A report, generated by a model with database tools, continued. It deals with a DNA stretch of 53,317 nucleotides from Gammaproteobacteria bacterium (GTDB lineage Bacteria > Pseudomonadota > Gammaproteobacteria > Steroidobacterales > Steroidobacteraceae): assembly GCA_043738315.1 (NCBI GenBank), contig JAYUGT010000287.1:1-53317 (forward strand); not shown here. Direction: 5' to 3'.

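Follow-up and report, generated by a model that had tools for sequence, protein, structure and literature searches.

The YGTTAG word and its copies

YGTTAG is a signal carried in duplex DNA and specific to one clade; its extended consensus is TTYGTTAGSY. Its 114 copies in the window, counted as GTTAG or CTAAC, compare with 33 ± 4 in a shuffle of synonymous codons that keeps each gene's codon usage and with about 2–10 in GC-matched relatives; expressed as enrichment, the excess is 20–70-fold over the GC-matched relatives and 3.5–19-fold over the codon-preserving shuffle, the latter range running from GTTAG to TTTGTTAG. The strict core is the hexamer, the flanks contributing less than 1.5 bits to a total of ∼13 bits. 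Neither AGTTAG nor GGTTAG is enriched, and among the one-mismatch words, themselves barely enriched, only TGTCAG is raised (3.6-fold, 38 vs. 10 in controls). The word is non-palindromic with asymmetric flanks, and holds a lone A, at position 5.

The window contains only ordinary metabolic and transport genes, and no Rfam or tRNA features were found in it. Sites of both orientations lie within genes, in intergenic DNA and inside an IS element; ∼93% of the copies fall in intact genes, without indels and aligned to non-motif codons in relatives, and thus do not belong with REP- or MITE-like repeats, which are intergenic, form hairpins, measure 20 bp or more and multiply by transposition. Density is ∼2.1/kb alike in plus-strand genes, minus-strand genes and intergenic DNA, is even along gene length, and extends unchanged to an IS4 transposase gene and to the accessory part, with toxin-antitoxin genes, of L083 (a locus from a relative). 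The in-frame form G-TTA-G accounts for 60 of the 114 copies, coding and non-coding strands carry 65 and 40 copies respectively, with ∼8 more intergenic, and the peptides encoded at the sites are diverse. Flank rules are the same on the coding strand, the non-coding strand and at intergenic sites, and flank positions −1, +1 and +2 are different codon positions in different frame classes. These identical flanks, and the failure of the codon shuffle to reproduce the counts, uphold the claim of the sequence-only reading that the word is maintained at the DNA level. Codon usage is distorted by it: nearly all TTA codons in these genomes derive from YGTTAG.

Copies of the word in the window, with 5-bp GTTAG/CTAAC coordinates, strand, sequence, and codon frame in the named gene
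Coordinates	Strand	Sequence	Codon frame	Gene (strand)	Remark
382..386	+	CGCGTTAGGT	xCT-AAC	1-1455(-)	
762..766	-	CGTGTTAGGT	xxG-TTA-G	1-1455(-)	
1234..1238	+	GCTGTTAGTG	xCT-AAC	1-1455(-)	
1437..1441	-	TTTGTTAGCT	xxG-TTA-G	1-1455(-)	
1930..1934	+	GTTGTTAGCT	CTA-ACx	1485-2429(-)	
2111..2115	-	CTTGTTAGTC	xxG-TTA-G	1485-2429(-)	
2481..2485	-	TGGGTTAGCC		intergenic or gene 5' end (start uncertain)	among the three copies lacking Y at -1
2555..2559	+	GACGTTAGGT		intergenic or gene 5' end (start uncertain)	
3017..3021	+	ACCGTTAGCC	xxG-TTA-G	2628-3452(+)	
3345..3349	-	TTTGTTAGCT	CTA-ACx	2628-3452(+)	
3757..3761	+	GGCGTTAGGT	xxG-TTA-G	3617-4222(+)	
4126..4130	+	CCTGTTAGCC	xxG-TTA-G	3617-4222(+)	
4933..4937	+	TCTGTTAGCC	xxG-TTA-G	4280-5224(+)	
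5348..5352	-	GCCGTTAGGT	xCT-AAC	5221-6174(+)	Walker A GPNG
6343..6347	-	CGTGTTAGCT	xCT-AAC	6171-7268(+)	
6875..6879	+	TCTGTTAGTC	xxG-TTA-G	6171-7268(+)	
7365..7369	+	TTTGTTAGGC	xCT-AAC	7269-8012(-)	
7572..7576	+	TTTGTTAGCT	xCT-AAC	7269-8012(-)	
8187..8191	+	GCCGTTAGCA	xCT-AAC	8085-9131(-)	
8433..8437	+	ATTGTTAGCC	xCT-AAC	8085-9131(-)	
8832..8836	+	GCTGTTAGCT	xCT-AAC	8085-9131(-)	
9375..9379	-	GGCGTTAGCA	xxG-TTA-G	9148-9882(-)	
9662..9666	+	TTTGTTAGCT	CTA-ACx	9148-9882(-)	
10164..10168	+	GGTGTTAGCT	GTT-AGx	9939-10781(+)	
10777..10781	+	CGCGTTAGCC	xGT-TAG(stop)	9939-10781(+)	
11401..11405	-	GTTGTTAGGT	xCT-AAC	11121-11636(+)	
11981..11985	-	CATGTTAGGT	xxG-TTA-G	11658-13181(-)	
12372..12376	+	GACGTTAGCC	xCT-AAC	11658-13181(-)	
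12584..12588	-	TGCGTTAGGC	xxG-TTA-G	11658-13181(-)	
12933..12937	+	GCTGTTAGCC	xCT-AAC	11658-13181(-)	
13765..13769	-	GTTGTTAGGT	xxG-TTA-G	13178-14029(-)	
14336..14340	-	TTTGTTAGCA	xxG-TTA-G	14043-14429(-)	
14902..14906	-	TCCGTTAGGT	xxG-TTA-G	14426-15709(-)	
15277..15281	-	TTTGTTAGGT	xxG-TTA-G	14426-15709(-)	
15586..15590	-	TTTGTTAGGT	xxG-TTA-G	14426-15709(-)	
16254..16258	+	TTTGTTAGCT	xCT-AAC	15744-16919(-)	
16643..16647	-	GTTGTTAGCC	xxG-TTA-G	15744-16919(-)	
17575..17579	+	CGTGTTAGGT	xxG-TTA-G	17036-17848(+)	
17834..17838	+	ACTGTTAGAT	GTT-AGx	17036-17848(+)	
17998..18002	-	GGTGTTAGCC	xCT-AAC	17784-18920(+)	
18319..18323	-	ATTGTTAGGA	xCT-AAC	17784-18920(+)	
18595..18599	-	CGTGTTAGGT	xCT-AAC	17784-18920(+)	
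18967..18971	+	TTTGTTAGCT	xxG-TTA-G	18965-20992(+)	
19308..19312	-	CACGTTAGTA	xCT-AAC	18965-20992(+)	
19755..19759	-	CTTGTTAGCT	xCT-AAC	18965-20992(+)	
19957..19961	+	TTTGTTAGGT	xxG-TTA-G	18965-20992(+)	
20605..20609	+	TTTGTTAGGC	xxG-TTA-G	18965-20992(+)	
21042..21046	+	CACGTTAGCT	xxG-TTA-G	20992-22104(+)	
21341..21345	-	TACGTTAGGC	xCT-AAC	20992-22104(+)	
21977..21981	-	CGTGTTAGCG	xCT-AAC	20992-22104(+)	
22238..22242	-	TGTGTTAGGC	xCT-AAC	22108-22950(+)	
22670..22674	-	CGTGTTAGCC	xCT-AAC	22108-22950(+)	
23545..23549	+	TTTGTTAGCC	xCT-AAC	22960-23691(-)	
23708..23712	+	TTCGTTAGAA		intergenic	
24079..24083	+	CGTGTTAGCT	xxG-TTA-G	23741-24754(+)	
24794..24798	+	GTTGTTAGCT		intergenic	
25566..25570	-	GTTGTTAGGT	xxG-TTA-G	25543-26961(-)	
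25905..25909	-	TTTGTTAGCC	xxG-TTA-G	25543-26961(-)	
26563..26567	+	CGCGTTAGGT	xCT-AAC	25543-26961(-)	
26652..26656	-	GTTGTTAGAT	xxG-TTA-G	25543-26961(-)	
26981..26985	-	ATTGTTAGAG	xxG-TTA-G	26958-27623(-)	
27628..27632	-	CGCGTTAGCA		intergenic	
28422..28426	-	CTTGTTAGGG	xxG-TTA-G	27643-28998(-)	
28725..28729	-	TTTGTTAGGT	xxG-TTA-G	27643-28998(-)	
29277..29281	+	TCTGTTAGCA	CTA-ACx	28988-30304(-)	
29848..29852	-	TGTGTTAGGA	xxG-TTA-G	28988-30304(-)	
30076..30080	-	GCTGTTAGGC	xxG-TTA-G	28988-30304(-)	
30579..30583	-	TCTGTTAGCT	xxG-TTA-G	30328-31719(-)	
31002..31006	-	GGCGTTAGGC	xxG-TTA-G	30328-31719(-)	
31309..31313	+	TCTGTTAGGT	xCT-AAC	30328-31719(-)	
32062..32066	+	GCTGTTAGCG	GTT-AGx	31858-33381(+)	window-only (GTCAG/GTCGG in L081/L082)
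32476..32480	-	GGTGTTAGCT	CTA-ACx	31858-33381(+)	
32897..32901	-	GTTGTTAGGA	xCT-AAC	31858-33381(+)	
33152..33156	-	GCTGTTAGCC	xCT-AAC	31858-33381(+)	
33502..33506	+	TGAGTTAGCA		intergenic	without Y at -1
33638..33642	-	TTTGTTAGGC	xCT-AAC	33568-34941(+)	
34394..34398	-	GGTGTTAGCA	xCT-AAC	33568-34941(+)	
34707..34711	+	GGCGTTAGGT	xxG-TTA-G	33568-34941(+)	
35077..35081	+	GCCGTTAGCC	xxG-TTA-G	34916-35506(+)	
35316..35320	-	ATTGTTAGCA	xCT-AAC	34916-35506(+)	
35886..35890	+	GGCGTTAGCC	xxG-TTA-G	35608-36117(+)	window-only gain (GCG-CTG-G in L081/L082)
36264..36268	-	TTTGTTAGCC	xxG-TTA-G	36133-37227(-)	
37278..37282	+	GGTGTTAGGC	xCT-AAC	37263-37682(-)	position common to L081, L082, L083, L085
37610..37614	-	CGCGTTAGGC	xxG-TTA-G	37263-37682(-)	position common to L081-L083
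38422..38426	-	GCCGTTAGCC	xxG-TTA-G	ilvI 37685-39550(-)	kept in L082, L083; lost in L081
38683..38687	-	CATGTTAGGT	xxG-TTA-G	ilvI (HMLGMHG)	motif-free relatives: ATGCTCGGC
40241..40245	+	GCCGTTAGTC		intergenic	window-only
40537..40541	+	ACTGTTAGGC	xxG-TTA-G	40256-40765(+)	
41427..41431	-	TTTGTTAGCA	xxG-TTA-G	40762-41433(-)	
41808..41812	+	CCTGTTAGGC	xCT-AAC	41556-42509(-)	
42008..42012	-	TTTGTTAGCC	xxG-TTA-G	41556-42509(-)	
42731..42735	+	CTTGTTAGCG	xxG-TTA-G	42636-43571(+)	
43148..43152	+	CCTGTTAGCT	xxG-TTA-G	42636-43571(+)	
43430..43434	+	CGTGTTAGGT	xxG-TTA-G	42636-43571(+)	
43567..43571	+	CTCGTTAGCC	xGT-TAG(stop)	42636-43571(+)	
43867..43871	-	GTTGTTAGAT	xxG-TTA-G	43580-44002(-)	
44723..44727	+	TTTGTTAGGA	xxG-TTA-G	44286-45221(+)	
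45128..45132	+	TTTGTTAGCC	xxG-TTA-G	44286-45221(+)	
45535..45539	-	TCCGTTAGGC	xxG-TTA-G	45254-46246(-)	
46048..46052	-	TGTGTTAGGT	xxG-TTA-G	45254-46246(-)	
46752..46756	-	TCTGTTAGCT	xxG-TTA-G	46243-46785(-)	
47590..47594	-	TCTGTTAGCT	xCT-AAC	47499-47939(+)	
48188..48192	-	GGCGTTAGGT	xxG-TTA-G	47949-49232(-)	
48949..48953	+	GCTGTTAGCA	CTA-ACx	47949-49232(-)	
49242..49246	-	ACGGTTAGTC	xGT-TAG(stop)	49242-51365(-)	without Y at -1
49372..49376	+	CGTGTTAGCC	CTA-ACx	49242-51365(-)	
49484..49488	-	TTTGTTAGCT	xxG-TTA-G	49242-51365(-)	
49784..49788	-	TTTGTTAGGT	xxG-TTA-G	49242-51365(-)	
50486..50490	-	GATGTTAGCT	xxG-TTA-G	49242-51365(-)	
50765..50769	-	GGTGTTAGGT	xxG-TTA-G	49242-51365(-)	
51282..51286	+	TCCGTTAGCC	xCT-AAC	in gene if ABC exporter start = 51365 (707 aa as in L081); else intergenic	
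51572..51576	-	GTTGTTAGGC	xxG-TTA-G	51375-52637(-)	
52346..52350	-	TTTGTTAGCT	xxG-TTA-G	51375-52637(-)	
52897..52901	-	TTTGTTAGAT		intergenic	

Clade distribution, site conservation and spacing

The word seems to occur throughout the genome, roughly once every 250–500 bp. Among loci and metagenome contigs of relatives, its density is 2.0–4.0/kb in L081, L082, L083, L089, L090, L092 and L093 and ∼1/kb in L085; no copies were found in the sister-lineage loci L084, L087 and L088. Word cover in the seven further clade contigs includes 10 kb beyond the window. In 80 other loci, GC-rich ones (at least 58% G+C) had 0–0.5/kb and AT-rich ones up to 1.1–1.4/kb. The nearest named relatives of the window are Steroidobacteraceae/Nevskiales MAGs, and the clade is uncultured, represented by MAG contigs only.

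Each copy is actively kept at its own position. Window sites were retained in 36/42, 39/43, 27/29 and 17/21 cases at 91%, 89%, 87% and 76% nucleotide identity, against any-5-mer baselines of 0.66, 0.56, 0.53 and 0.26, and with matched Leu codons as the control all 24 of 24 sites were kept vs. 60% (p = 1e–5). Divergence in the core was 0.04–0.06 vs. 0.09–0.25 in the surroundings, with no clear recombination signature in the divergence of the flanking 10–400 bp. New sites differ by two or three changes made at once (CTG to TTA together with the flank), and gains by multiple changes have also been reported for recent DUS, the DNA uptake sequences of Neisseria (PMC2397512). Two of the checks proposed with the sequence-only reading, alignment of orthologues and a search for the word beyond the window, came out in its favor.

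Two of its other claims, equal use of both orientations and even spacing, also held. Orientations stood at 51:63 in the window (55% of copies on the G-rich strand) and 86:74 when pooled (54% on that strand, 95% CI 0.46–0.62), giving no strand polarity, and their order was random (runs test z = −0.26); GC skew has a single sign throughout the window, which places it on one replichore, and the small orientation bias tracks gene strand. The coefficient of variation (CV) of the gaps was 0.52 vs. 0.99 for random placement; only two gaps fell under 100 bp where 21.7 were expected, and the longest was 1558 bp (P = 0.006). Random choice among the 696 synonymous opportunities gives a CV of 1.0, so the positions of opportunities do not explain the regularity. 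The two orientations repel each other, short gaps between opposite-orientation or any neighbors numbering 6 where independence predicts 18.9 (P = 0.003), and single-orientation sets resemble random thinnings of the pooled set, neither being regularly spaced alone, which is the behavior predicted for one site of either orientation per fragment.

Candidate readers of the word

The reading that we infer to be most likely, and hold tentatively, is that YGTTAG acts like a DNA uptake or recombination tag, in the way of DUS in Neisseria, USS in Pasteurellaceae and, by a recent proposal, HIP1 in cyanobacteria. A clade protein would bind duplex DNA bearing the word; the candidates are a DNA receptor of the transformation machinery, on the cell surface or in the periplasm, and a partner that acts immediately ahead of recombination. 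Fragments with at least one copy would therefore be preferentially taken up or recombined, and copy-gaining alleles would be over-transmitted and copy-losing alleles under-transmitted. Copies would build up against codon preference until each fragment-sized stretch had one; a second copy near an existing one would bring no added advantage and would decay, leaving regular spacing and equivalence of the two orientations. Published precedents are the even spacing and lack of orientation bias of USS, the Pasteurellaceae uptake sequences (PMC1939737), and, for the cyanobacterial octamer HIP1, conservation by selection (PMC5861425) and increased transformation efficiency (10.1101/2024.09.10.611283). 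Several findings count against this reading. The gene content of the window is ordinary, divergence next to the sites bears no clear mark of recombination, and inverted terminator pairs are absent. No pilin or competence genes were found in the window or fetched flanks, and the lone HHH_3 protein, in L083, was not recognized as ComEA. AT-rich foreign DNA carries GTTAG at 1.2–1.4/kb by chance, which with a 6-bp core would put self/non-self discrimination far below that of the 9–12 bp DUS and USS. The scant enrichment of one-mismatch variants implies an all-or-none specificity, of a sort seen more in enzymes of the restriction-modification type than at graded binding sites.

That specificity suits another reading, which we judge the less probable: that YGTTAG is the target of a DNA methyltransferase, either orphan or part of a system, and that the marked sites do housekeeping work for which a mark every few hundred bp is required, for example telling strands apart during repair, timing replication or segregation, or labeling self. 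HIP1 was earlier viewed in this way, and such a function could coexist with a role in transformation. The strict asymmetric hexamer, the lone A at position 5 as in BREX, type IIG and type III targets, the conserved positions, and the even, orientation-independent coverage of all DNA including the IS element are consistent with it, and HIP1 is bound by two methyltransferases, its transformation effect being methylation-dependent (PMC4390886, 10.1101/2024.09.10.611283). However, the window and fetched flanks contain no methyltransferase gene, and loss of one mark 465 bp from the next should be cheap, yet single sites are strongly conserved. Targets of the restriction-modification systems known so far are, moreover, generally avoided or neutral in host genomes, not 20–70-fold enriched.

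We think it unlikely that the word is the binding site of a nucleoid-associated or chromosome-organizing protein decorating the chromosome at short regular intervals. Regular spacing, orientation independence and uniform coverage would fit, and proposals of such a role exist for HIP1 (PMC5861425) and for the evenly spaced USS (Karlin, cited in PMC1939737). Nonetheless no candidate protein is known, the gaps are regular yet not periodic (gamma shape 3.8), and the two-fold range of density among close lineages is more in keeping with drive than with a structural lattice. The nucleoid proteins known so far typically bind degenerate, AT-rich sequence rather than one strict hexamer.

A Chi-like hotspot or polar signal (KOPS/AIMS-like) read by a translocating enzyme, e.g., RecBCD/AddAB or FtsK, is disfavored, and we allow it only a very small chance. 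Short Chi sites of 5–8 nt do exist (e.g., AGCGG in B. subtilis) and are over-represented on the core genome. For HIP1, too, an action resembling that of Chi has been put forward (10.1101/2024.09.10.611283). Against this, the 54–55% of copies on the G-rich strand falls short of the co-orientation of Chi and KOPS (∼75% or more on the leading strand), what bias there is goes with gene strand, and the orientations are interdependent, where a direction-dependent signal predicts the opposite. We give as little weight to a neutral by-product of sequence-specific mutation or repair bias, a very-short-patch-like ratchet turning near-cognates into GTTAG, an idea that Elhai put forward to explain how HIP1 arose (PMC4390886; taken up in PMC5861425). 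Differences in site presence are indeed mostly transitions, but near-cognates are undepleted (TGTTGG 16 vs. 18.5 in controls; TGTCAG is even raised), merely 15% of synonymous opportunities are occupied, occupied positions are conserved over 24% divergence, and a ratchet is incapable of producing regular spacing or mutual repulsion of sites.

A translation-level signal (a regulated, bldA-like rare TTA codon, or a codon-pair or peptide preference) could draw on the in-frame G-TTA-G copies and the favored coding strand, but is refuted by non-coding-strand and intergenic sites that obey the same flank rules, with flanks on differing codon positions, diverse peptides, and counts that the codon-preserving shuffle does not reproduce. 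Least credible is an artefact, whether from systematic errors of basecalling or of assembly, or else a watermark put in by engineering. This reading has nothing for it beyond the oddity of the pattern and is refuted by intact reading frames encoding conserved proteins and by same-position sites in contigs from different projects and assemblers (GCA_031382085.1 and GCA_031363155.1 from NCBI, flye-style and MEGAHIT k141 contigs from ENA, and JGI metagenomes).

The word among known genomic signals

YGTTAG could, we tentatively suggest, be a genome-wide tag for self or uptake that evolved independently, the third of its kind and the first from beyond Neisseriaceae, Pasteurellaceae and cyanobacteria, read by a duplex-DNA receptor or a methyltransferase blind to orientation; as such it may have the shortest strict core, highest density and most regular spacing of these tags. 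If so, sequence-preferring natural transformation or equivalent genome marking would be commoner in environmental bacteria than cultured models suggest, and such systems would be discoverable from sequence alone. To our knowledge the well-known families of hyper-abundant selected genomic words are three, DUS, USS and HIP1, each of which has driven research into transformation, self-recognition and genome evolution for decades. A fourth family, with a 6-bp asymmetric AT-rich core in a GC-rich genome, 2–4 copies/kb and near-lattice spacing, has very different properties, and would therefore provide an independent test of molecular-drive and selection models. Orientation independence narrows the type of reader to seek, and sister lineages at 0, ∼1, 2, 3.4 and 4 copies/kb offer a natural comparison in which phylogenetic profiling could pinpoint the gene. 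The word is also a strong marker for binning and for spotting horizontally transferred DNA in the lineage.

The closest known systems, with HIP1, are DUS (GCCGTCTGAA and dialects, Neisseriaceae) and USS (AAGTGCGGT/ACAAGCGGT, Pasteurellaceae), whose defining trait is preferential uptake or transformation via a specific receptor (ComP in Neisseria). Like them, YGTTAG is specific to its clade, exceeds expectation by one to two orders of magnitude, reaches about one copy/kb or more, is used in both orientations without replichore polarity and is spaced more evenly than random. The likeness extends to a core with weaker flanks, a mainly intragenic location in few tolerated frames at a cost to codon and sometimes amino-acid choice, positions conserved among related genomes, and new copies often several bases away from the ancestral sequence. 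Unlike them, its sequence is unrelated to GCCGTCTGAA or AAGTGCGGT, its taxon is a Steroidobacteraceae-like gammaproteobacterial MAG clade, its strict core is 6 bp vs. 9–12 bp, it is AT-rich within a GC-rich genome, it is 2–4 times denser, it would discriminate weakly against AT-rich foreign DNA, and no inverted pairs that could act as terminators were found (minimum gap 74 bp), in contrast to Neisseria DUS.

HIP1 (GCGATCGC) and the HIP-like octamers of cyanobacteria are the second comparison. They too are over-represented (15–300-fold), at about one copy per gene or more, in coding DNA whatever the frame or strand; site conservation above the synonymous background, matched here by the 24/24 vs. 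60% and 17/21 vs. 0.26 retention, implies selection. For both, no gene-level function has been found and variants differ by lineage, and chromosome structure, methylation and transformation have all been proposed as the function. HIP1, however, is an 8-bp GC-rich palindrome with methyltransferase sites, whereas GTTAG/CTAAC lacks self-complementarity and YGTTAG has no known methyltransferase. HIP1 periodicity is reported at 10–90 kb, while the regularity of YGTTAG lies in nearest-neighbor spacing, at ∼0.3–0.5 kb.

BREX PglX, type IIG and type III targets (e.g., GGTAAG, TAGGAG) resemble YGTTAG in sequence form, as strict, all-or-none, non-palindromic hexamers with A at position 5, but hyper-abundance, even spacing and conserved positions in the host are not among their known properties. 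Chi (GCTGGTGG in E. coli, AGCGG in B. subtilis), KOPS and AIMS are likewise short, asymmetric and over-represented across the core genome, and a link to recombination may be shared; Chi and KOPS, though, are polar relative to replication and read one way, while the orientations of YGTTAG are interchangeable, and its enrichment and evenness are far higher than those of Chi.

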